From the NCBI GenBank assembly GCA_019058315.1, contig JAHPZH010000007.1, positions 128,001 through 192,000 on the forward strand: a stretch of 64,000 nucleotides of DNA. Reading direction: 5' to 3'. A program made the translations under genes and the position numbers. Position 1 is the stretch's first letter. The number at the start of each line of letters is the position of its first letter. Positions 23,728 through 36,728 of the stretch are shown here, in pieces. The notes under the pieces were generated by a model. It had not been told where the DNA came from, searched no databases, and saw nothing but the letters and a program-made list of their open reading frames with translations. This stretch comes from Candidatus Helarchaeota archaeon. GTDB taxonomy: Archaea; Asgardarchaeota; Lokiarchaeia; Helarchaeales; RDOG01.

Positions 23728-25446
23728 TTAAAAATCTAATGGATCAATATCTAAGCCGGGAAAATTAATCCAATTAGTTAGATTTTTCCTTTGATAAATA
23801 AATAACATATCATTTACTTGACCAAATCCTGGATATATAGCAATCAAGTTATATTCTGAATTAAGAACTTCAGTAATATTTTTACCAAAGAAAATTTCAA
23901 GATCAAATTTCTCGGTAAGGAACGTAAAGAAAGCCTGACCAAGAGTAAATAAAGCCATAGTAGTATAGTTTGACTTTAATTGATGGTATAGAATTTCTCC
24001 GTTTAATACATGATAATACAAACAGACACATGAAAATAATCCGAAGGGTTCATACCAATGGTGGTAAGAAAAATAAGACATTTCATTTCCTGGCATGAGA
24101 TTTCTATCAGATTGTGTTGTTAAAGCACATTCATAAGTTGCAATATAGCCCCAAGGCGGCGAAGCAATTCCAATGAAATCGGAAACTTCCTGATACTGTT
24201 TTATATCATTAATTAAAATTCGTTCAGAAAAGGGACGACCTGCACGAGGAATAACAAATTGATTAATTTGGGGAAGTGTTGTTAACGGTATTACACAAAT
24301 TAATCCTATAAAAATAAATTTCTGATAATTCTTTTGAAATAATTTAAAATTTGTAAAACGAAATCTGCCATATCTAAAAAATTTAATAAGACCTATAAAA
24401 ACTACTAGAATGGTTATAGGCAAGATCGAAGTAATATATTCAGCAAATAATGTAGCTAACATCATGTAAACACCTATCACTACTAACTGAGTGAGAAATA
24501 TGAGAAAAATTACTTCATAATTTCTAAAGATCGTTTTAATATCATTTTTTATTACTAAGGCAAAAAAGAGAAAAATTGGCAAGAATATTATAAAAATTGA
24601 GATTACTAAATATTGTAATAATGCATCAAAAATAAGAACTATTCTTCCAAAAATCCCTAAACCAATATTTAGAGTCAAATTTCTATTAGAATGAACTCCA
24701 ATTAGATTATAAAGGGATCTATTTAATGAACCACTTTCGAGAAAGTCAATTAAAAAGATTGGACCATAAATAATTATTAGTGTTATAGCCGAAATCATTA
24801 AATATTTTATTAAATTCTTTAATAGGTCCATTTTTGATGTTTTATTCCATTCCTTAATGGCTATCCAACAAGAGAGAAATATTGGGAGAGCTGCAATATT
24901 CAAACGTACTCCACCCGCTAACCCCATGAAAACAATTGAAATAGTATATTTCCAACTTTCTTTCATATCAGTTGAATATATATAAAGGCCTAGAACAATA
25001 AAAAAAAGCGTTAAAGTGTACGTTTTGGTAATTATTAAATTATATAAAATCCACCAAGCTATAGACATAGCTAAAACAGTATAAATGCCAGCCATTTCAA
25101 ATTCTACATTTTTTCCTATTTTAATTATGAGAAACGCTGTTATAAATAAAAATACAAATGTAATTATTCTACTATTTAGTAAATTATTGCCAAATATTAG
25201 TAAAGGTAGTCCATATACATATAATAAAACTGGGGACTGAGTAAAGAAAAAATCAACATAAGGAATAAATCCCTCCCAGACTAATTTCGCACAATATGTG
25301 TAAAAATTTTCATCTACGTTTACATGACTTGTAAAAAGGAGAAATAAGCTATTAAAAGCAAAAAAAATAAGAACATAAATAGAATATTGATTGGATTTTA
25401 TCTTTATACTTTCCTTAAAATCTGAAATTATATTTTTAATACTCAT
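23728..25446 (-). CDS. GT-C fold glycosyltransferase (ArnT/PMT-like, GT39/83)
   Basis: N-terminal DE motif (NVDENFY), PYVDFF...P, multiple TM segments. Confidence 0.8.
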   Translation of the reverse strand: MSIKNIISDFKESIKIKSNQYSIYVLIFFAFNSLFLLFTSHVNVDENFYTYCAKLVWEGFIPYVDFFFTQSPVLLYVYGLPLLIFGNNLLNSRIITFVFLFITAFLIIKIGKNVEFEMAGIYTVLAMSIAWWILYNLIITKTYTLTLFFIVLGLYIYSTDMKESWKYTISIVFMGLAGGVRLNIAALPIFLSCWIAIKEWNKTSKMDLLKNLIKYLMISAITLIIIYGPIFLIDFLESGSLNRSLYNLIGVHSNRNLTLNIGLGIFGRIVLIFDALLQYLVISIFIIFLPIFLFFALVIKNDIKTIFRNYEVIFLIFLTQLVVIGVYMMLATLFAEYITSILPITILVVFIGLIKFFRYGRFRFTNFKLFQKNYQKFIFIGLICVIPLTTLPQINQFVIPRAGRPFSERILINDIKQYQEVSDFIGIASPPWGYIATYECALTTQSDRNLMPGNEMSYFSYHHWYEPFGLFSCVCLYYHVLNGEILYHQLKSNYTTMALFTLGQAFFTFLTEKFDLEIFFGKNITEVLNSEYNLIAIYPGFGQVNDMLFIYQRKNLTNWINFPGLDIDPLDF

Positions 25447-26214: not shown

Positions 26215-26871
26215 ATGAAAATTCTAAAACAAATTGGGTTTATTATAATTGCAATTGGACTTATTCTTGGTTTATATCAAGCTTATTTGTTAATTCTTAA
26301 TTATTTATACGACATTTTTGGAATTATTGAGCTAATTGGAACTATTCGTTTAGTTATACTTTTCGCAATGTTAATTGGATTCTTCATAATAATAATGGGT
26401 GGAGTAGTTGAAAATTATTTTACCAAAAAAAATGGTTTAGAATCTGTTGAAAATCCTACATCTGGCTCGACTAGGAAACGAATTTATATAATCGCTGCTA
26501 TAATCGGAGGTTTAATCATATTAGCTCTAACATTTTTAATTATATCATATTCAGGCTTTTATGTTCCACGAGAAATTAGATTATGGATCGATTTATTATC
26601 AATATTTGCAATTATTTGGTTTGCTACTTCACTACCATTATATGTGGATAAAATAAATAAAGACACATTAGAAATCCAACTATTTGGGCTTCATATACAT
26701 GAAACATTTCTGGGAATTATATTAATGGTAACAGGTTTCTTTTTTATTTTTCATCATATAATTGCATTCGATTTTGTTTTCGGAGCTTATTATTTGATTA
26801 TAGGTGCATTTTTAATGGGACGAGACATAGAAGATCTAAGACAATTTAAAATTATTGAACGTATTAAATAA
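26215..26871 (+). CDS. Hypothetical membrane protein
   Basis: About 6 TM segments; GLHIHE motif. Confidence 0.7.
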   Translation: MKILKQIGFIIIAIGLILGLYQAYLLILNYLYDIFGIIELIGTIRLVILFAMLIGFFIIIMGGVVENYFTKKNGLESVENPTSGSTRKRIYIIAAIIGGLIILALTFLIISYSGFYVPREIRLWIDLLSIFAIIWFATSLPLYVDKINKDTLEIQLFGLHIHETFLGIILMVTGFFFIFHHIIAFDFVFGAYYLIIGAFLMGRDIEDLRQFKIIERIK

Positions 26872-26887
26872 CAAAATTATTAATTTT

Positions 26888-27988
26888 TTAATTTTCAGAT
26901 CTATTTGAAAAATTTTTAGTAGAAATTCCCCTAGTTTCTAGCCAATTTTTTGTAGTTCCACTAATAATCAAGTTTGAATTCTTTAGATCGTTTAAATTCT
27001 TCGATTTAGTTAAAAACATGGCAATTTTAAGCTCTTTAATGAATTTTTCCATTAATTCTTTTAATTTATTATAATCATCTTCATATGCGGGTTTTAAGAA
27101 AGGAAGCGAAATTCCAACCAAATCTGCACCAATAGCAATAGCTTTTGCAATATCCAATCCATTTCGAACACCACCAGAAGAAATCAAATTAATACCAATT
27201 GTAGATGCCTCAATAGTGGCAACAGCAGTCGGAATTCCCCAATCCCAAAATGTTTTTGTAATTTCTGGTAAAGTTTTTACTTTATCTTTTGATCTATAAT
27301 ATTCCACAGCTGCCCAACTAGTTCCACCAACTCCACTGATATCAACTGCATCTATTTCAAGGTTTTTTAGTAACATTATTTCTTCTTTTGCTATCCCTGC
27401 TCCAGTTTCTTTAACTATTAATGGAATTTTTATATCTTTTTTGATTTTTTGGAGTCCATTTATAACTCCTTTATAAAATGGGTCTCCCTCACTCTGTAAA
27501 CATTCCTGTAATGCGTTCAAATGAATGGTAAATGCATTAGCTTGGATCATTTTAATTGCACGATTGATTTCAAACATACCATACTCATCTGAAATTTGAG
27601 GAGCACCAAGATTACCTATAATAAAAGCATCGGGAGCTGTCTCTCGTGCAATATTATAAGTATATTCCAAACTAGGATCTTTAATTGCGGCTCTTTGGCT
27701 TCCTAGAGCAAGACTAATGTTGAATTCTTTTGCAAGTTTGGCCAAATTTTTATTTATTTTTTTGCTAACTTCATGTCCTCCAGTCATTGCATTAATTAGA
27801 ATGGGACTATTAAATTGATGATTGAAAATATTTATTGAAGTATCAATTTCATTAAAATCAATTTCTGGAAGAGCTCGATGGATAAATTCAATATCTTGAA
27901 ACCCAGTTTTTTTATAATTTGCTTCTATATTCTCTTCTATACAAATTATGATATGTTCGAATTTACGATTTTCTATTTCTTCAGCCAT
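26888..27988 (-). CDS. fni: Type 2 isopentenyl-diphosphate delta-isomerase
   Basis: RKFEH, MTGG, GSQR, HLN.LQE, KETG.G, GGTSW, SGGVR. Confidence 0.97.
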   Translation of the reverse strand: MAEEIENRKFEHIIICIEENIEANYKKTGFQDIEFIHRALPEIDFNEIDTSINIFNHQFNSPILINAMTGGHEVSKKINKNLAKLAKEFNISLALGSQRAAIKDPSLEYTYNIARETAPDAFIIGNLGAPQISDEYGMFEINRAIKMIQANAFTIHLNALQECLQSEGDPFYKGVINGLQKIKKDIKIPLIVKETGAGIAKEEIMLLKNLEIDAVDISGVGGTSWAAVEYYRSKDKVKTLPEITKTFWDWGIPTAVATIEASTIGINLISSGGVRNGLDIAKAIAIGADLVGISLPFLKPAYEDDYNKLKELMEKFIKELKIAMFLTKSKNLNDLKNSNLIISGTTKNWLETRGISTKNFSNRSEN

Positions 27989-28000
27989 TTTTCATCTGTC

Positions 28001-29281
28001 CTAACTCTTTTTACCTCTTCCTAAACGTTCATGAGAAATTGATAAATGACCAGCAGATAATGCTGCACAAAGACTTATTTCACCGGCTAATGCGGTCGAT
28101 GTAATAATTTCTGCAAATTTTACTGCCATAGTACCAGGGGGTTTATCCTTATAAAAACCTGCACACCCTAAAATAGATAAACCTTCTTTTTGGGTGGGTA
28201 GATGAGTTCCTCCACCAGTAGTACCAATTTCTAATGATGGTAAAAGAAGGGACATATATAAATCATTATTTTCTAAAATTTCTGCAGTTAATATTCCCAT
28301 TGAGCTCTCTACTACTTGTGCTGGATCTTGTCCAGTAGCTAAAAAAATTGCTGCTATAATATTTGCTACATGAGCGTTAAGTCCATAGGCAGCCGCTTGT
28401 CCTGATCCGATATATATTTTTCGGAATACAACTTCAGCAATAGCTTCAGGTGTGGTCTTTAATGTCTCTTTAATATAAGATTTTGGTAAAACAACCTCAG
28501 CCTGTACTGTTTTACCCCTTCCTAAAATATAATTAAGTGCACTAGGTTTCTTATCAACACACATATTTCCTGAAGTTGCGATTAACTCACATTTAACAGG
28601 TCCTTTTTCTATAATGAAATCAGCTGCTTTTCTTGAACCCGTTGTTATCATATTCATTCCCATTGCATCTGCGGAAAATACTAAAAACCTTATAAATAAA
28701 CTTCTTCCTACTATCCAACTCTGGATATCCTTTAATATTGCGAAAGGATCGACATTTTTAAAAATTTCAGCAATTTTTTCAAAATGATCATTAATCCATT
28801 TAACCAAGATTTGACCATTTTCCGTGAATGGTGGTTCTATTATTTTAAAAACTGGAGCCCTTGCCATCATATTTTTTAAAACTTTTACATTACATCCCCC
28901 AGCATTCGTTATGATAGAACAACCTCTGTTTACAGATGCTACTAATGCACCTTCTGTCGTACATAGTGGGACATAATAATCACCTTTCGCAACTTCCCCA
29001 TTAACTTTTATAGGTCCTGCACACCCTATTGGTATAGAAGCACATCCAATCGGATTTTCTATGTTTCTGGAGGCAGTTAAATTCATATCTATTGAATAAT
29101 TCCCAATATTTTCTAATTTAATATGTTTAAGTTTTTCCAAAGCTTTTCTACGTAATGTTGTTGCTTTTTCAATGTCACCATCTACAAATTTTTCCACTTG
29201 ATATAATTTAATTTCACCAAGGACTATTTTTTCGATTATTTCTTGTTCATTCATTGGATGCAACTCAGAACTATAGATCAT
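28001..29281 (-). CDS. hmgA: HMG-CoA reductase (NADPH, class I)
   Basis: ENPIG, TTEGALVAS, DAMGMNM, DKK, GQDPAQ, GGGT, C-terminal His. Confidence 0.97.
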   Translation of the reverse strand: MIYSSELHPMNEQEIIEKIVLGEIKLYQVEKFVDGDIEKATTLRRKALEKLKHIKLENIGNYSIDMNLTASRNIENPIGCASIPIGCAGPIKVNGEVAKGDYYVPLCTTEGALVASVNRGCSIITNAGGCNVKVLKNMMARAPVFKIIEPPFTENGQILVKWINDHFEKIAEIFKNVDPFAILKDIQSWIVGRSLFIRFLVFSADAMGMNMITTGSRKAADFIIEKGPVKCELIATSGNMCVDKKPSALNYILGRGKTVQAEVVLPKSYIKETLKTTPEAIAEVVFRKIYIGSGQAAAYGLNAHVANIIAAIFLATGQDPAQVVESSMGILTAEILENNDLYMSLLLPSLEIGTTGGGTHLPTQKEGLSILGCAGFYKDKPPGTMAVKFAEIITSTALAGEISLCAALSAGHLSISHERLGRGKKS

Positions 29282-30930
29282 TTCAGCTTTATCATATCTT
29301 TTGCGAAATATCTTTTTATTAGAGAAATATATTTTTTCCCTGTTATTTCGTCCGGATTGTGTAATCTTTGAGAAAATGGATATATATTATTTAAATATTT
29401 CTTATATAGTTCTGTTACTTCGAAAATAGCACAACCTCCTCCAGCTCCGGAACCATACCAACCTGTCAAAATCTTGTCTCCTTCCATCAATTTAATAGTT
29501 GGGTTATCTGGATTTTCAAATCCAACTTTTTTTGCGGTTTCTTTATCAATCTTAATAGCATGTTCTGGTTCATTCACTATTTCAGCTAATCCGAACATTG
29601 TAGCTGCGGAATAAGTATTGCCCAGATAAATCACTGGTTTTCCAATAACACAAGGTTTCAATCCAGCTTCAATTCTACTTTTATCATCTAATTTATATTT
29701 CTGAACTTCTTTTTTCTCAAAATTATAATTGGGTTGATGAAAAGTGGCAGCAACTATTTCTTTAAGATCAATATTCATCATTTTTAAAGTCTTATTAATG
29801 GCTGCCTCTTGATATGCAAAATATGATGGGTTTCCAGTAAATGCATGACCATGAAATGGATAATTTTGATATTTACGACGAGCAAAATCTGGATGATCCC
29901 CTACATGTGTATTCATTGTTAAGTATTCTAAAATAACATTATATTTTGAAATAACCATACACACAGCTCCAGCTCCAGTATCTAAGTCTAAAGGATCGCC
30001 AGGAGATCCTTGAGCCACATCCGCCCCAATTAATAATGCAGTATCTATTTCTCCAGTTTTAATCATTGAAATGGCTGGCTTAATCTGCATTCCAGTTGCT
30101 ATACACGCAAATTCTGCATCATAAACAATAATGTTTTCGGGTGCACCTACGTAACTCATTACATTTGTAGCCGAGGGCTTTACCGAATATGGTTTGGATT
30201 CTGAGCCTACAACAATCATACCTATTGTCTCAACAATTTCAGGAGGTAATAATGAAAGTGCATCAGCAGCAGCATCCATGGCTAAAGTACTTGTATCTTG
30301 GTCCCAATTTGGAACGGTTACTTCTTTAACTCCCAAACCTTTTAAAATATAATTAGGATCGATATTCAAGTGTTTTGCCATATTTTGAGCAGTTGTTTTA
30401 TATCTAGGAATTGAAACTCCTATAGAAGCGATTCCGGGATTTTTACATTCAATTAGTTTATCTGTGAAAGGTATCTGTTTTTTTCTATTTATTGGTTTAG
30501 GTTTAAATTTAACCCCATAATATATTGCGCCATCTGGGTTATTATCTAATATTCGCATAGTTGGTTCTACTTCTTTACCGATCCATTCTTGAACAGAAAA
30601 TATTTTATTTGCTGGAATATCAATATCTGTTAGTTCAGTAGGAATTCTTACTTCAGATCCATCAAAATCTATCTTAATAATTCCCACTGCCTTATTTTTC
30701 ACCCATTCCAAACCGATTTGAGATTCTCTAGATATACTAATAGCATCAATAACTCCATCTTGTACTAGAGATACAGTATTTATTGTTCCACCTCTTCCAC
30801 ATTCAGGACAAATTTGTTTAATTTTAGAAGAAAAAAATATTTTGCCGCATTCTGAATGTTTATAACCTATTAATCTATGTCTAATATCCCTAGTTCTAGT
30901 ATAATAAGGTAAACCATAACGACTCATCAT
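29278..30930 (-). CDS. DUF35 (Zn-ribbon/OB-fold) - HMG-CoA synthase fusion
   Basis: N-terminal HSECG...CPECG and YGVKFKP (DUF35); then GSESKPY, EFAC, GAGA, FHQPN, GNTYSA, YGSGAG (HMGS). Confidence 0.9.
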   Translation of the reverse strand: MMSRYGLPYYTRTRDIRHRLIGYKHSECGKIFFSSKIKQICPECGRGGTINTVSLVQDGVIDAISISRESQIGLEWVKNKAVGIIKIDFDGSEVRIPTELTDIDIPANKIFSVQEWIGKEVEPTMRILDNNPDGAIYYGVKFKPKPINRKKQIPFTDKLIECKNPGIASIGVSIPRYKTTAQNMAKHLNIDPNYILKGLGVKEVTVPNWDQDTSTLAMDAAADALSLLPPEIVETIGMIVVGSESKPYSVKPSATNVMSYVGAPENIIVYDAEFACIATGMQIKPAISMIKTGEIDTALLIGADVAQGSPGDPLDLDTGAGAVCMVISKYNVILEYLTMNTHVGDHPDFARRKYQNYPFHGHAFTGNPSYFAYQEAAINKTLKMMNIDLKEIVAATFHQPNYNFEKKEVQKYKLDDKSRIEAGLKPCVIGKPVIYLGNTYSAATMFGLAEIVNEPEHAIKIDKETAKKVGFENPDNPTIKLMEGDKILTGWYGSGAGGGCAIFEVTELYKKYLNNIYPFSQRLHNPDEITGKKYISLIKRYFAKDMIKLK

Positions 30931-30944
30931 AATATCCCACCAAA

Positions 30945-32162
30945 TTATTTTTCCAATATATGTATCATTTGTTTTGTTCCAGAAGCAGATTGTTCATGTA
31001 ATAAAGCAATTTTTGGGTTATTTTCTACTTGGTTTCTTCCTTTACCATTTAATTGATCAACTAATTGAACCAATCTACTCAATCCAGCTACACCCGGTAC
31101 ATTTCCATAAATATAAGTGCTTCCACAAGGATTTAATATAAAAGATCCACCTGTATCATTTTCATAAATTATATGTTTATTTCCGTAATCATCAGGTAAT
31201 GCTTTTAATTTATTTGAGATTTTTGGAAGTGCTGGATATTCTAAAATTTCTAATCCTTCCAAAGCTAATGGACCAACAATAGTGACTTTTGTATCCACAC
31301 TTACTAAATCCAAATCATTTGGAGTAATTTGTGCCTTTTCATAGGCAATATTTGCTGCTCTACTTAAAGCAGGGTAATGAAAAATATTATTTTGATTCCA
31401 AAATTCTGAGGGTCCAGTAGTACTCACTGAAGCTTTAATATAGATAGGTGATTTATATTCTCGAGCCCTTTCTACAGAGGTTAATAGAATAGCAGCCGCA
31501 CCATCATTTTTAGTAGAAGCGAAGTCATAAAATGTTAAAGGATCATAATATAATCTACTATCTGCATTTTCTTTTAAGTAATTAAATTGTGATAATTTCT
31601 TTGGACCTCTTGTCGCATTATATTTATCATTAATTGCGATTGATATAAGATCTTTATGAGTAGTTTTTGTTTCATGTAAATATTTGGAAGCTAAAGTTGC
31701 ATATACATTTTGCCACTTCCAATTCCATAGCCTTAAATTGGGATCTATGCTCTTATCGGAAACATCAACTGTATATTGTTGGTCAGAGCGTTTATCGCAA
31801 CCAGCTACAATTACAAATTCACATTCATTTGATTTAATCGCACTTATAGCAGCATTTAAAGCCTCACTGCCTTTTGAAAAACCATGCATTCTTGACATTA
31901 TCCCAAAATTAGAAGCAAAAATTGACTCCCATGCCAATTGACCTTTTTTCCCAATAACTGCAGATGCAGTAGCACTTGATAAGAATATTCCATCAAAATC
32001 TTTTCTATGAAATCTTTTCTTTGATTCTAATTCAACTTTAGTAACCAAACCCATAGCAGCGGTTGCGGCTAGTTCTTCAAATGAAATTAGATATTCTTCT
32101 CTACAAGGAACTAAATAAGTTCCAATTATAGCCGCATCTGAATTTTTAATATTTCTTTCCAT
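30945..32162 (-). CDS. Thiolase-fold protein lacking catalytic Cys/His residues
   Basis: Archaeal/SCP2-type thiolase scaffold (DPLT, DGAAAILL, AYEKAQI, NPCG, QL...RNQV); ACASG, EVHDCF and GH.GATG motifs degenerate. Confidence 0.8.
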   Translation of the reverse strand: MERNIKNSDAAIIGTYLVPCREEYLISFEELAATAAMGLVTKVELESKKRFHRKDFDGIFLSSATASAVIGKKGQLAWESIFASNFGIMSRMHGFSKGSEALNAAISAIKSNECEFVIVAGCDKRSDQQYTVDVSDKSIDPNLRLWNWKWQNVYATLASKYLHETKTTHKDLISIAINDKYNATRGPKKLSQFNYLKENADSRLYYDPLTFYDFASTKNDGAAAILLTSVERAREYKSPIYIKASVSTTGPSEFWNQNNIFHYPALSRAANIAYEKAQITPNDLDLVSVDTKVTIVGPLALEGLEILEYPALPKISNKLKALPDDYGNKHIIYENDTGGSFILNPCGSTYIYGNVPGVAGLSRLVQLVDQLNGKGRNQVENNPKIALLHEQSASGTKQMIHILEK

Positions 32163-32181: not shown

Positions 32182-33234
32182 TTATATATCTCTAAATTGA
32201 ACAAAATCTACCAAATTCGAAAAAAATTGATTAGTACTTTTAGTAAATTTTATTTTATCGAGGACCTTTCTTGCTTGATTCACGATATCCAAAGCTTTTT
32301 GTTTCGTATGTTCAAGAGCTTTAGTATCTTTAAATATTTGCTTAACAGTTTTAATTTCCTTTTCTGTAATTTCAGGTTTACCTAATAATTCTTGCAATCT
32401 ATCATCCTTTTTATTTGCATAAATTGTAAGTAGGGTCTTTTTACCCTCCCTAATATCACTATCAGTAGGCTTTCCAATCTTCTGCTTCTTACCAAACACT
32501 CCTAAAATATCATCTCGTATTTGAAAAGCTTTTCCCAATAATAAAGCAAACTGACTTAAAAGTGATTTATCTCTTTCAGATTTATCACCTAATAATGCTC
32601 CTATTAGAATTGATTTTTCAAAAAGGGCTGATGTCTTACCTTCAATCATGGCCATATAATCCTTTTCTGAAACCATTTTTAAAGGTAAGTTCTGTAAATA
32701 GGTTTCATACAAAACGCCATTAATAATATCCCGATAAGCTTGCTGATAATAAGTAACAGCCTTTTTAATGATATTGGTAGAAAAATTTGATGATAAGATA
32801 GGCTCAAAGCCCATATCTAATAAATAATCACCACCCAAGATACCCATTGTAACCCCAAAATCTTTCTGTTGTGATGATTGACTTAAATTATAATCAAACC
32901 ATTGTTGATAAGCCACATGAAAGCTGGGTTGTCCTCGCCGTGTCACATCATGGTCAATTATATCATCATGAATTAAAGATGCATTATGTAGTAACTCTAC
33001 ACAAATGGATAATTTATGAATTGCTTCTAGACTTCTTCCACCTTTCCCCTCATATGCAGCGATTAAAGCAATAGGTCTTAGTCTCTTACCTCCTGCTAAA
33101 ATAAACTGCTTTAAATCTGAATAATATTTAATAATAAATGGATTTTTTTCGGGAATCATCTTTTTAAAAAAGAAAATTCCAATTTCCACATCAATTATCT
33201 CTTTCTCATCTTTCAGAACTTTTTGAAAATCCAT
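32182..33234 (-). CDS. idsA: Geranylgeranyl diphosphate synthase / polyprenyl synthetase
   Basis: GGKRLRP, HDDIID...RRG, KT, FQIRDDILG, GKKT. Confidence 0.93.
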   Translation of the reverse strand: MDFQKVLKDEKEIIDVEIGIFFFKKMIPEKNPFIIKYYSDLKQFILAGGKRLRPIALIAAYEGKGGRSLEAIHKLSICVELLHNASLIHDDIIDHDVTRRGQPSFHVAYQQWFDYNLSQSSQQKDFGVTMGILGGDYLLDMGFEPILSSNFSTNIIKKAVTYYQQAYRDIINGVLYETYLQNLPLKMVSEKDYMAMIEGKTSALFEKSILIGALLGDKSERDKSLLSQFALLLGKAFQIRDDILGVFGKKQKIGKPTDSDIREGKKTLLTIYANKKDDRLQELLGKPEITEKEIKTVKQIFKDTKALEHTKQKALDIVNQARKVLDKIKFTKSTNQFFSNLVDFVQFRDI

Positions 33235-33376: not shown

Positions 33377-34438
33377 TCACTCAATGACACCAGTATTTTT
33401 CGCTAAATGCTCAGCAGCATCTGCAGTAAGTCCCGAATTTATAATTGTGTACCTATCACGCATTTTATGAGCTATAGTGAGAGCTTCTATTATTTTATCA
33501 TCTTTTACTCTCAGTTCTTTCGCATTTATAGGTGCTTTTACATATTGTAAAGCTTTTTTAATTTGTTGCCAATCCCCATCATGTAAATACATCATCATTA
33601 TTGTTCCAACCCCGCATTGTTCACCATGTAATGCATATTCAGATCCTAAGAAATCTAATGCATGAGAAAATAAATGTTCACTTCCGCTTGCAGGTCTTGA
33701 AGATCCAGCCACTGAAATTGCGATACTTGAAGTTATTAAAGCTTCAAGGACGGTTCTTACACTTTCCTCTGTTGGTTTTATCTTTTCATAATTTTGTAAA
33801 AGCATCTCTGCAGATTGTTGTGACAACATTGCGGCAAAATGCCCATAATATTCATTTTTAATCCTGTGGGCAAATTTCCAATCTAATACAGCGGTTAGAT
33901 TTGCTAAAATATCACCAACTCCCGCAGTTAATAACCTAAACGGTGCTTTCGAGATAATTTCTGTATCAGCTAGAATTGCAATTGGTGTTTGTGCAACTAC
34001 TGTGTGTTCTTGTTCCATACCTTTAACAGAAGCAAATGGGGACGCAATTCCATCATGTGATAATGTGGTTGGAACACTAATAAATGGGAGACCTAATTCA
34101 TTACTTGCCAATTTTGCTATATCAATGTTTTTTCCCCCTCCAACCCCTAAAACAAGATCTGGTTTAACCTCAATCATTTCATCTTGACACCAATTAACAT
34201 AACCCATATTTGCTTCTTTAACTTCCATGAAACTTACATTATATTTCTCGTCCTCTAATGTATGCATTAATCTATTCCCAGCAATTTTCAATGTGGTTGG
34301 TCCAGTTACAATAAAAATAGTTCTCTTACCGTTATGAGAATGGAAACCCAATTTTTCGCAAAGTTCCCCAATTTTATCTAATACACCATGTCCTATTATT
34401 ATTTTTGATGGTAGATTAATTTTATGTGCTGGAATCAT
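33377..34438 (-). CDS. egsA: Glycerol-1-phosphate dehydrogenase [NAD(P)+]
   Basis: GGGKNID, SHDGIAS, SRPASGSEH.FSH, HGEQCG. Confidence 0.97.
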   Translation of the reverse strand: MIPAHKINLPSKIIIGHGVLDKIGELCEKLGFHSHNGKRTIFIVTGPTTLKIAGNRLMHTLEDEKYNVSFMEVKEANMGYVNWCQDEMIEVKPDLVLGVGGGKNIDIAKLASNELGLPFISVPTTLSHDGIASPFASVKGMEQEHTVVAQTPIAILADTEIISKAPFRLLTAGVGDILANLTAVLDWKFAHRIKNEYYGHFAAMLSQQSAEMLLQNYEKIKPTEESVRTVLEALITSSIAISVAGSSRPASGSEHLFSHALDFLGSEYALHGEQCGVGTIMMMYLHDGDWQQIKKALQYVKAPINAKELRVKDDKIIEALTIAHKMRDRYTIINSGLTADAAEHLAKNTGVIE

Positions 34439-34471: not shown

Positions 34472-35377
34472 TCACCATGGCAAAATTATATTTCTAAATG
34501 GATTTGGATCTGGTAATAATAAACCTGGAAATCCAAGTAAAAATGAAAATAACCCAATAAACATTCCAAATTTTAATATTCTTTTAACAAAATGGGCATT
34601 TTCGGAAGAATCCGGATTTCTTAAGAGTAATATTATAGAAATAATCATAATTGAGTCCACTCCTCCTAAAGCAACAAATAAATATATTTCATTAAATAAT
34701 TTGAAGAAATATGGAAGAGGGGAAAGAATTATTGTGAATATTAAAAATAAAACTGCCAAATATGATCCGTTTTTTCTACCAAGTAAAACTGCTAATGTTT
34801 TAACGCCCTCTTCTTTATCTCCAACATAATCGTCAACACCTTTTGTTATTTCACGACCAATATTCATTACAAAAGCCAATAAAGCTGCCCAGAAAGAAAA
34901 TTCAATTTTATTTAATGCCGCCCCACCTAATAAGAGACAAAAAGAGGTGAGCAAACCAATTGTAATATTTCCTATAAATCCTAATTTTTTGAATTTTAAA
35001 GAATATGCAGCAATAAATACAGAACCAATTAATAAAATTAATATTGCTTGAATATTTTCAGTTAAAAAAATGATTGCATCCCCTACCACAAAAAGGGCTA
35101 TAGTTAATATAAGGGCAGTATTTCTAGATATTCTTCCTGATGGAATTGCCCGCTCTGGACAATTTATTCTATCAATTTCTACATCCTTCCAATCATTTAA
35201 AGCATGACCTGCAGAAGCAGTTAAAAATGCGGCTAGGAAGCAAATTAAAACGTTAAATAAATTCCTTTCGAGATTAAACAAGAAACCACTTGCTATGGCT
35301 CCAATCAAAACTCCAATGGCTGCTCCTATACCATTTAGAGGGCGCATAATCTGAAAAGCACCCTTTACTGCTTCCAT
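34472..35377 (-). CDS. Digeranylgeranylglyceryl phosphate synthase (UbiA family)
   Basis: RPLN, NDWKDVEIDRIN.PER.IPSG, REITK..DD..GD; lipid cluster context. Confidence 0.9.
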   Translation of the reverse strand: MEAVKGAFQIMRPLNGIGAAIGVLIGAIASGFLFNLERNLFNVLICFLAAFLTASAGHALNDWKDVEIDRINCPERAIPSGRISRNTALILTIALFVVGDAIIFLTENIQAILILLIGSVFIAAYSLKFKKLGFIGNITIGLLTSFCLLLGGAALNKIEFSFWAALLAFVMNIGREITKGVDDYVGDKEEGVKTLAVLLGRKNGSYLAVLFLIFTIILSPLPYFFKLFNEIYLFVALGGVDSIMIISIILLLRNPDSSENAHFVKRILKFGMFIGLFSFLLGFPGLLLPDPNPFRNIILPW

Positions 35378-35378
35378 A

Positions 35379-36728
35379 TTAATCTATCCCACATATTTGA
35401 TAAACATTTTGATAAATATTTGTAATATGAGAAATCCAATTGTCTAATTTATCAGGAGATTTGGGAAAATTTCTATACATTGATTTAATCGTTTTCATCT
35501 CCTTTGCAACTTTTCTCAACTTATTTAATAAAGATAATTTTCTAATACCCCTAAATACTCTCTTTATCTTATCTGTAATTCTTAATTTAAATTCCTTACC
35601 TAAGGATGCATTTAAAATGTCTTCTTCAGTCATTATTTTATGTGACATTCCATAATTAAGATCCTGGTCGTCCATTAATTGTAATAATATCCTAAATAAG
35701 TCCAAACCAGCTTGTTTAGCCCCATACCCCTTCATATACTCTAAATTATAATTCCATAAAGATTTTTTGCTAGTATCTTCTTTCTCTAATGCTGAAATTA
35801 CAGTTTTTCCTGCGATAACTCCTGCTTGCATACTAGGACCAATCCCTCCACCATGAATCGGGTTTACTTGACAAGCAGAATCTCCCACCAATACTAGCCC
35901 ATCATCAACCAGACTGTATATTGGTCTACGAGTCGGAACAACTCCACCTCCACCTTTAATGAGAGTTGAATTTTCAAATAAAGGGTCATTTAGGACATGT
36001 GTTTGAAATAATGTTTTTGGATTTTTATGATCCGGAATCATCTGGACACCCAAACCCGAGTTAACCCTCGAATCACCTTCAGGAAATATCCAATAATATC
36101 CACCAGGAGCAAAACTAGAAGTTAAATATATTTTACAGTGTTGAGTATTTTCTAAACCCGAATTTAAATCACGAATCTCTCGATAACAAACCTCCACTTC
36201 GGTAGGTTGAATTTTATCATCATAAAACATTTTAATTTTATTTCTAATTACTGCATGGAATCCACTTGCATCTATAATGATTGATGCAATTAATTTTTGC
36301 TTCGTATTTTCTTTTAAATTTTTAATATGCACTCCCCATCCATTGTCAGTAATTGGCTCTAAGACTAATGCCTCATCAATTAATGTGACTCCTGCATCTA
36401 TTGCCTCATTAACTAATCTCTGTCCGAATAAATGTCGGTTTATTATAAACCCATCTCCAGGAACTGTAAACACAGTTTCTTTATCTGGAGATATTAATTC
36501 AATGGCGGTAATTGTATTCTCTAATTCCTCACCCTTTGGCGGTCCTAATATTCCACTTAAATCTTCAAAATGATGCTGACCTATGGCATCACCACAAACT
36601 TTGTCTCCTATATTAATTCTTGGTTTCTGATCTATCATACAAACGTTAAAGCCTGCTTTTGCAATTGTTTTTGCAGTTAATGAGCCCGCAGTTCCCGAGC
36701 CGACAATAATAACATCAAATGTAGCCAT
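35379..36728 (-). CDS. Geranylgeranyl reductase family flavoprotein
   Basis: GSGTAG, VCGDA, IDASG, PGGYYWIFP, VGDSA..VNPIHGGGI. Confidence 0.92.
   Translation of the reverse strand: MATFDVIIVGSGTAGSLTAKTIAKAGFNVCMIDQKPRINIGDKVCGDAIGQHHFEDLSGILGPPKGEELENTITAIELISPDKETVFTVPGDGFIINRHLFGQRLVNEAIDAGVTLIDEALVLEPITDNGWGVHIKNLKENTKQKLIASIIIDASGFHAVIRNKIKMFYDDKIQPTEVEVCYREIRDLNSGLENTQHCKIYLTSSFAPGGYYWIFPEGDSRVNSGLGVQMIPDHKNPKTLFQTHVLNDPLFENSTLIKGGGGVVPTRRPIYSLVDDGLVLVGDSACQVNPIHGGGIGPSMQAGVIAGKTVISALEKEDTSKKSLWNYNLEYMKGYGAKQAGLDLFRILLQLMDDQDLNYGMSHKIMTEEDILNASLGKEFKLRITDKIKRVFRGIRKLSLLNKLRKVAKEMKTIKSMYRNFPKSPDKLDNWISHITNIYQNVYQICGID

Follow-up and report, generated by a model that had tools for sequence, protein, structure and literature searches.

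How does an archaeal 3-hydroxy-3-methylglutaryl-CoA (HMG-CoA) synthase (HMGS) work beside a thiolase that has lost its active site? This question is raised by a locus in Candidatus Helarchaeota archaeon, within positions 128,001 to 192,000 of contig JAHPZH010000007.1; these 64,000 nucleotides are the whole stretch that was analysed and are referred to below as the window. The complex of thiolase, HMGS and a DUF35 protein has been described as near-universal in archaea, and its shared CoA site is thought to let HMGS pull the uphill thiolase reaction along. In the window a thiolase-like protein, labelled P0002, is encoded directly before a DUF35-HMGS fusion, labelled P0001. Our favoured reading, to which we assign a probability of roughly 60%, is that P0002 is an obligate non-catalytic partner of HMGS and that acetoacetyl-CoA comes from other thiolases or from beta-oxidation. 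The pair is laid out as follows.

30945..32162, minus strand: thiolase-like protein P0002, 405 aa (phmmer, MAFFT alignments, AlphaFold2 model)
29278-30930, minus strand: fusion P0001, 550 aa, whole gene (open reading frame, ORF)
30481..30930, minus strand: DUF35 domain of P0001, residues 1 to about 150, a predicted zinc ribbon followed by an OB fold (phmmer, alignment, model)
29278..30444, minus strand: HMG-CoA synthase domain of P0001, residues about 163-550 (phmmer, tetrad, fold match)

A thiolase fold without its catalytic residues

The top match of P0002 in the PDB is 6esq_A, the thiolase of the Methanothermococcus thermolithotrophicus complex, with an E value in phmmer of merely 1e-13. 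In the phmmer alignment to 6esq_A and in the MAFFT alignments, the nucleophilic cysteine (N-A-C-A-S, the CxS motif) aligns with F95; the serine of the same motif aligns with K97. All alignments place D290-T291-K292-V293 at the H-D-C-F position, G353-N354-V355 at the G-H-P position and E390-Q391-S-A at the N-x-G-G position. The cysteine of HDCF is the second catalytic cysteine in SCP2-type thiolases. PMC12329534 names HDCF as the motif of SCP-2 thiolases and describes paired catalytic cysteines in thiolase active sites, and the histidine of HDxF is essential in an archaeal thiolase (PMC12960953). A preliminary description of the locus had quoted motif strings in support of a full-length thiolase without the nucleophilic cysteine and both histidines. 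All of these strings are present in the P0002 and P0001 ORFs on the minus strand, and F95, D290 and N354 occupy the three positions in the alignments to 6esq_A and others. The description had also called for the other thiolases of the genome to be listed, and among the 21 thiolase-superfamily paralogues compared P0002 alone has lost all these residues. With its catalytic residues gone P0002 is, to judge from the alignments, a thiolase-like protein without thiolase chemistry.

The five-layer thiolase fold is retained in the AlphaFold2 model of P0002 (predicted local distance difference test, pLDDT, 85; predicted template-modelling score, pTM, 0.89), for which the top Foldseek matches were 6et9_C and 6esq_A with template-modelling (TM) scores of 0.78-0.83. 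We also looked for another cysteine that might have taken over in the active site. The alignment of family members contains no cysteine conserved across the P0002 family: C122 is near-invariant in the Helarchaeal clade alone, with V or F in the distant members, and C346 varies among C, S and N, so the earlier claim of a dead thiolase stands. The former nucleophile position is occupied by F, S or Y and its conservation is merely average.

A word-index search identified 31 P0002 orthologues at 51-90% identity; the next matches were canonical thiolases, at 27%. When 1.84 billion representatives were searched with a profile, only four further clusters came up below E 1e-30, giving about 35 orthologues in all at 36-90% identity. 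Three of these distant clusters could be aligned and carry the same replaced motifs at 36-39% identity to P0002; the fourth, P0162, is a 124-aa fragment and was left out of the alignment. The source labels of the closest homologues are Helarchaeota, Lokiarchaeota or Promethearchaeota. The dead-thiolase lineage is Helarchaeota-like, plus at least four more distant clusters of uncertain origin, one of them in a high-GC metagenome-assembled genome (MAG) labelled Myxococcales. This MAG carries a 44%-identical fusion at the start of one contig (L049:157-1776) and, at the end of a second contig (L060:1417-2616), a thiolase of the dead type, which could reflect horizontal transfer or mis-binning.

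In the least saturated contig pair the thiolase-like gene has a nonsynonymous divergence (dN) of 0.036 and a synonymous divergence (dS) of 0.429, a ratio (omega) of 0.084, and the adjacent geranylgeranyl diphosphate synthase gene in the same pair gives 0.108. Identity of P0002 to its relatives, at 49-61%, is on par with that of the prenyl synthase, isomerase and prenyltransferase encoded in the same operon (GGPPS, IDI2 and DGGGPS). The P0002 gene is under strong purifying selection. P0002 scores far below the NCBIfam cut-offs for NF004720 (PRK06064; 125.8 bits against 420) and NF053570 (94.9 bits against 600), as a decaying pseudogene or an annotation artefact might, but an intact 405-codon frame, an omega of 0.084, a confident fold model and the survival of the family down to its distant members leave such an explanation with next to no probability. 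Neutral decay, of which the orthologues bear no sign, was rejected on the same ratio, in agreement with the earlier proposal that the dead thiolase is kept.

The fusion, its operon and its origin

Residues 16-144 of P0001 match the DUF35 protein 6esq_E (E 1e-6) and residues 163-459 the HMGS 6esq_I (E 6e-51) in phmmer searches of the PDB. The preliminary description of a DUF35 domain with an HxxC first knuckle at the amino-terminus of HMGS was correct, with putative zinc knuckles that read H25-x-x-C28 and C41-x-x-C44; H25 is conserved in orthologues. A Cys3His1 zinc site in a DUF35 protein has a published precedent in Shy (PMC12329534). The DUF35 part is modelled as beta strands at a pLDDT of 80-90, and no Pfam family reached E 0.01 for it. 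The glutamate, cysteine and histidine that had been reported as kept in HMGS are E244, C276 and H398, and with N438 they form an intact tetrad, which every aligned HMGS, fused or unfused, shares. The model of P0001 (pLDDT 84, pTM 0.88) places the HMGS domain on 6esq_I with a TM score of 0.90, normalised to the target. P0001 scores below the archaeal HMGS cut-offs of NF003274 (239.3 bits against 244) and TIGR00748 (211 bits against 353). Around residues 455-482 the HMGS domain has an insert that is specific to the family and about 30 aa long, because of which the NF003274 match ends at profile position 283 of 347.

The two genes sit in a tightly packed run of eight genes on the minus strand, from 36728 to 26888, with spacers of 19, 14 and 12 nt around the pair. 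This run is an archaeal membrane-lipid operon, in the order GGR, DGGGPS, G1PDH, GGPPS, thiolase-like gene, fusion, HMGR and IDI2. Its six other genes are the following.

35379..36728, minus strand: digeranylgeranylglycerophospholipid reductase (GGR)
34472..35377, minus strand: UbiA-type prenyltransferase, DGGGP synthase-like (DGGGPS)
33377..34438, minus strand: glycerol-1-phosphate dehydrogenase (G1PDH)
32182..33234, minus strand: short-chain prenyl (GGPP-type) diphosphate synthase (GGPPS, P0004), 19 nt upstream of the thiolase-like gene
28001..29281, minus strand: class I HMG-CoA reductase (HMGR, P0003), whose start overlaps the fusion stop by 4 nt
26888..27988, minus strand: type 2 isopentenyl diphosphate isomerase (IDI2, P0005)

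Two ORFs, at 23728-25446 (minus strand, 572 aa) and 26215-26871 (plus strand, 218 aa), flank the downstream end of the operon and have no NCBIfam match at E 1e-6.

The order GGPPS, thiolase-like gene, fusion, HMGR and IDI2 is kept on 12 contigs, eight metagenome contigs included. The dead thiolase was found in four and the fusion in five of the seven GTDB species of the order, adjacent wherever the contig permits, and at least 17 orthologue pairs lie on contigs of matching size, one of these pairs having consecutive accession numbers. The metagenome scan returned nothing beyond Helarchaeal-type loci. One metagenome contig (L069:5490-6889) has about 1.4 kb of ORF-poor sequence between the thiolase-like gene and the fusion, as against 12-60 nt elsewhere. 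The co-occurrence that the preliminary description had asked about therefore holds in part: the two genes are always adjacent on the 12 contigs, but in another Asgard family, f19, the fusion stands beside a live thiolase, and fusion and dead thiolase are therefore separable.

The f19 locus also bears on how the pair arose. There a relative of the protein P0165 is a live thiolase, with the cysteine, HDCF and GHP intact, and is followed by a 506-aa DUF35-HMGS fusion with CxxC...CxxC knuckles and the tetrad, 33% identical overall to P0001. Across 400 Asgard genomes, only f19 and this order yielded full-length fused matches; in other lineages the genes are unfused and encode about 350 aa. A bacterial- or eukaryote-type HMGS is present in the Loki-type genomes examined and in family f2 of this order. 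The canonical thiolases closest to the dead family are of the PRK06064/NF053570 type, which is the mevalonate (MVA) type. A quick maximum-likelihood tree recovers the dead family as a single clade (support 100) whose stem is 1.49 changes per site long, nested (98) with P0164, P0165, P0168 and P0184 among PRK06064/MVA-type thiolases. An insert of about 15 aa (K-H-I-x-Y) is common to the dead family and P0164, P0165 and P0168; P0184 lies outside that alignment. On this tree P0002 descends from the archaeal mevalonate-pathway thiolase clade. Because its nearest live relatives, in f19, also pair with a DUF35-HMGS fusion, the fusion probably arose before the thiolase died.

Partial loss is seen in the sister group of the dead family or next to it: P0163 carries Asp in place of the cysteine and keeps both histidines, and P0168 is without the cysteine and the GH histidine and keeps HD. 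These two proteins may represent intermediates of the loss. In family f2, an operon (L034, G240:C95:10000-24000) encodes a 545-aa bacterial/eukaryote-type HMGS, a decarboxylase, class II HMGR, mevalonate kinase, IP kinase and IDI2; the dead thiolase was not found in this mevalonate operon.

The genome (G000; 5.8 Mb in 12 contigs, about 30% GC, 94% complete; the contigs named below are C1, C3, C5 and C11) contains four HMGS-like genes, of which only P0001 keeps the E-C-H-N tetrad, and scans with TIGR01835 and NF003274 found no second tetrad-bearing HMGS in it. The other three resemble PhlA and are without E, C and H, two of them also having D for N, and are therefore old paralogues. Each adjoins a live thiolase and a DUF35 gene, in modules in which the thiolase is intact and the HMGS-like protein dead.

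C1:374230-376860 (L017:6237-8862): thiolase, HMGS-like and DUF35 genes
C5:149595-152213: thiolase, HMGS-like and DUF35 genes
C11:533745-536414: thiolase gene and a 491-aa HMGS-like-DUF35 fusion, as in the published Pseudomonas case

We considered reciprocal degeneration after a recent duplication and rejected it, since these copies are PhlA-like and lack E, C and H, the C1 copy being 29% identical to P0001. The status of the fusion as the only tetrad-bearing copy largely holds in relatives. It is the sole such copy in one of them, G302; another, G301 (88% complete, 7% contamination), has an extra tetrad-bearing HMGS-like frame of 385 aa at G301:C392:3182-4141. In G304 and G297 a contig end truncates the fusion, so that its tetrad could not be scored.

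Proposed role of P0002 and source of acetoacetyl-CoA

Why would a thiolase without a catalytic residue be conserved like a working enzyme? That combination makes a non-catalytic partner the most likely role for P0002. According to Vogeli 2018, as cited in PMC12960953, archaeal HMGS on its own shows no activity, ACAT on its own is insoluble and the two share a CoA chamber, and bacterial relatives retain dead partners (PMC12960953, Nat Commun 2026). It is for these reasons that we read P0002 as an obligate partner of HMGS. By analogy with the canonical complex, P0002 would most likely keep HMGS soluble and active and supply half of the CoA site, and the fused DUF35 domain would staple HMGS and P0002 together. 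The complex would take free acetoacetyl-CoA and acetyl-CoA to HMG-CoA for the HMGR encoded next door. We infer a physical P0001/P0002 complex, a CoA-site role for P0002 and an outside source of acetoacetyl-CoA.

That source could be the other live thiolases of the organism or beta-oxidation, as had been suggested from the locus. The genome encodes at least 14 thiolase paralogues with the cysteine and both histidines intact, one Hbd-type dehydrogenase, 13 crotonases (enoyl-CoA hydratases) and three MCR-alpha-like genes with frames of about 600 aa (at C5:377506, C3:198869 and C11:316902), which suggests a resemblance to the genome of an alkane or fatty-acid oxidiser.

A live thiolase might also reach the complex in person. 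P0002 could form a mixed dimer with a live paralogue encoded elsewhere, in which one active site per dimer channels acetoacetyl-CoA to HMGS. Several live thiolases of the same subfamily are available, and six paralogues in the genome are without the nucleophilic cysteine (C11:794516-795766, C3:1066306-1067541, C3:429995-431287, C3:1225823-1227055, C11:829020-830216 and C11:455120-456331). Four of the six keep both HDxF and GH, while the C11:829020 paralogue has Y-A-P-F at the HDxF position and the C11:455120 paralogue L for the GH histidine. The last of these is encoded directly after a live thiolase (C11:453949-455115), one example of the neighbouring live and cysteine-less thiolase pairs in the genome, and the two may form a heterodimer. 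Against a mixed dimer with P0002, the operon lacks a second thiolase gene on all 12 syntenic contigs, and identity between P0002 and its nearest live paralogues is only about 23-27%, which makes a conserved dimer interface doubtful; we consider the arrangement improbable.

Several observations weigh against the idea of an obligate non-catalytic partner. By conservation, the loop that stands in place of HDCF (S-x-D-T-K) ranks in the 97th percentile. Within the P0002 family, the high-GC homologue included, D290 does not vary, and K292, N354 and E390 are nearly invariant, N354 being present in 25 of 26 non-redundant members. Conservation of this loop exceeds the strict need of a passive scaffold and could point to a new site, for binding or for catalysis. 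In addition, the insert of about 30 aa in the HMGS domain of P0001 is absent from the f19 fusion that is paired with a live thiolase, and the P0001/P0002 interface may have been remodelled in ways that the canonical complex does not predict.

It is therefore conceivable that P0002 is a neo-functionalised enzyme or ligand-binding subunit, with a new site made up of K97, D290, T291, K292, N354, E390 and Q391. Such a protein might capture free acetoacetyl-CoA and hand it over, might sense a CoA thioester and so regulate HMGS, or might catalyse a reaction that is independent of cysteine. All four former active-site loops have been replaced by new conserved sequences and not by relaxed ones, and the Ltp2 and Sal aldolases (PMC12329534) demonstrate that a thiolase-fold protein may be an enzyme without the nucleophilic cysteine. 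However, we identified no chemistry that would suit such a site. P0002 has V-D-T-K where Ltp2, Sal and SLP have the Y-D-x-F/Y motif, both histidines are gone and no cysteine is conserved. A decarboxylative condensation from malonyl-CoA is disfavoured too, as no carboxyltransferase match was found in the 94%-complete genome. On balance a new function of this kind is possible but unlikely.

A more specific version would give P0002 a converted role, as entry port or catalyst: its D-T-K / N / E-Q site, new and invariant, would take up 3-ketoacyl-CoA from alkane or fatty-acid beta-oxidation and pass it to HMGS. This is speculative and we rate its chances as low. If it were true, membrane-lipid synthesis would be wired directly to catabolism and thermodynamic channelling would have been abandoned.

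A whole Asgard lineage keeps the thiolase/HMGS/DUF35 architecture with the thiolase killed. Should P0002 be an obligate non-catalytic partner, HMGS would probably depend structurally on its partner, and the first step of archaeal lipid synthesis could be outsourced, given the acetoacetyl-CoA source that we propose. The locus offers a natural setting in which to separate the other contributions of the thiolase subunit from its catalysis, and bears on the coupling of hydrocarbon and fatty-acid catabolism to isoprenoid lipid synthesis in Asgard archaea.

Comparison with known systems

Literature searches turned up no report of an archaeal HMGS that is live while the thiolase beside it is dead; the mirror case, a dead HMGS-like protein with a live thiolase, was published in 2026. 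The closest known system is the 6ESQ complex of M. thermolithotrophicus, in which the three modules are likewise encoded side by side, the HMGS tetrad is intact and the product serves the mevalonate pathway. Its proteins are the best PDB matches by sequence for all three modules, and by fold for the thiolase and HMGS. In contrast to that complex, the thiolase here is without the CxS cysteine, HDCF and the GH histidine, and DUF35 is fused to the amino-terminus of HMGS, with a predicted H-C3 zinc knuckle and the insert of about 30 aa in HMGS. Channelling from acetyl-CoA in the manner described for 6ESQ is predicted not to work here.

Ltp2-ChsH2(DUF35) and Sal-Shy(DUF35) (PDB 6OK1 and 9MYR; PMC12329534) likewise combine an SCP2-thiolase fold with the absence of the nucleophilic cysteine, and theirs is bound to DUF35. 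Their Y-D-(H/C)-(F/Y) motif is absent from P0002, where V-D-T-K is found, and the similarity to P0002 is weak (6ok1_A, E 4e-6, partial). The setting also differs, with lipid synthesis here and steroid breakdown there. An identity of P0002 as an aldolase of the Ltp2/Sal/SLP type was rejected, as the catalytic tyrosine motif is missing.

The PhlACB and MucABC systems and the PfACAT/HMGS-DUF35 system of P. fluorescens (PMC12960953) resemble the locus in being tripartite and in retaining one catalytically dead partner, and in the Pseudomonas system HMGS and DUF35 are also fused. The dead partner is the opposite one: there the HMGS-like protein is dead and the thiolase alive, whereas here HMGS is alive and the thiolase dead. 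The order of the fused domains also differs, being HMGS-DUF35 in Pseudomonas and DUF35-HMGS in P0001. The C1, C5 and C11 modules have an HMGS-like protein without the tetrad and a thiolase with its cysteine, and so belong to the bacterial type. A single genome therefore holds both mirror forms of pseudoenzyme retention, with three modules of live thiolase and dead HMGS-like protein and one of dead thiolase and live HMGS.

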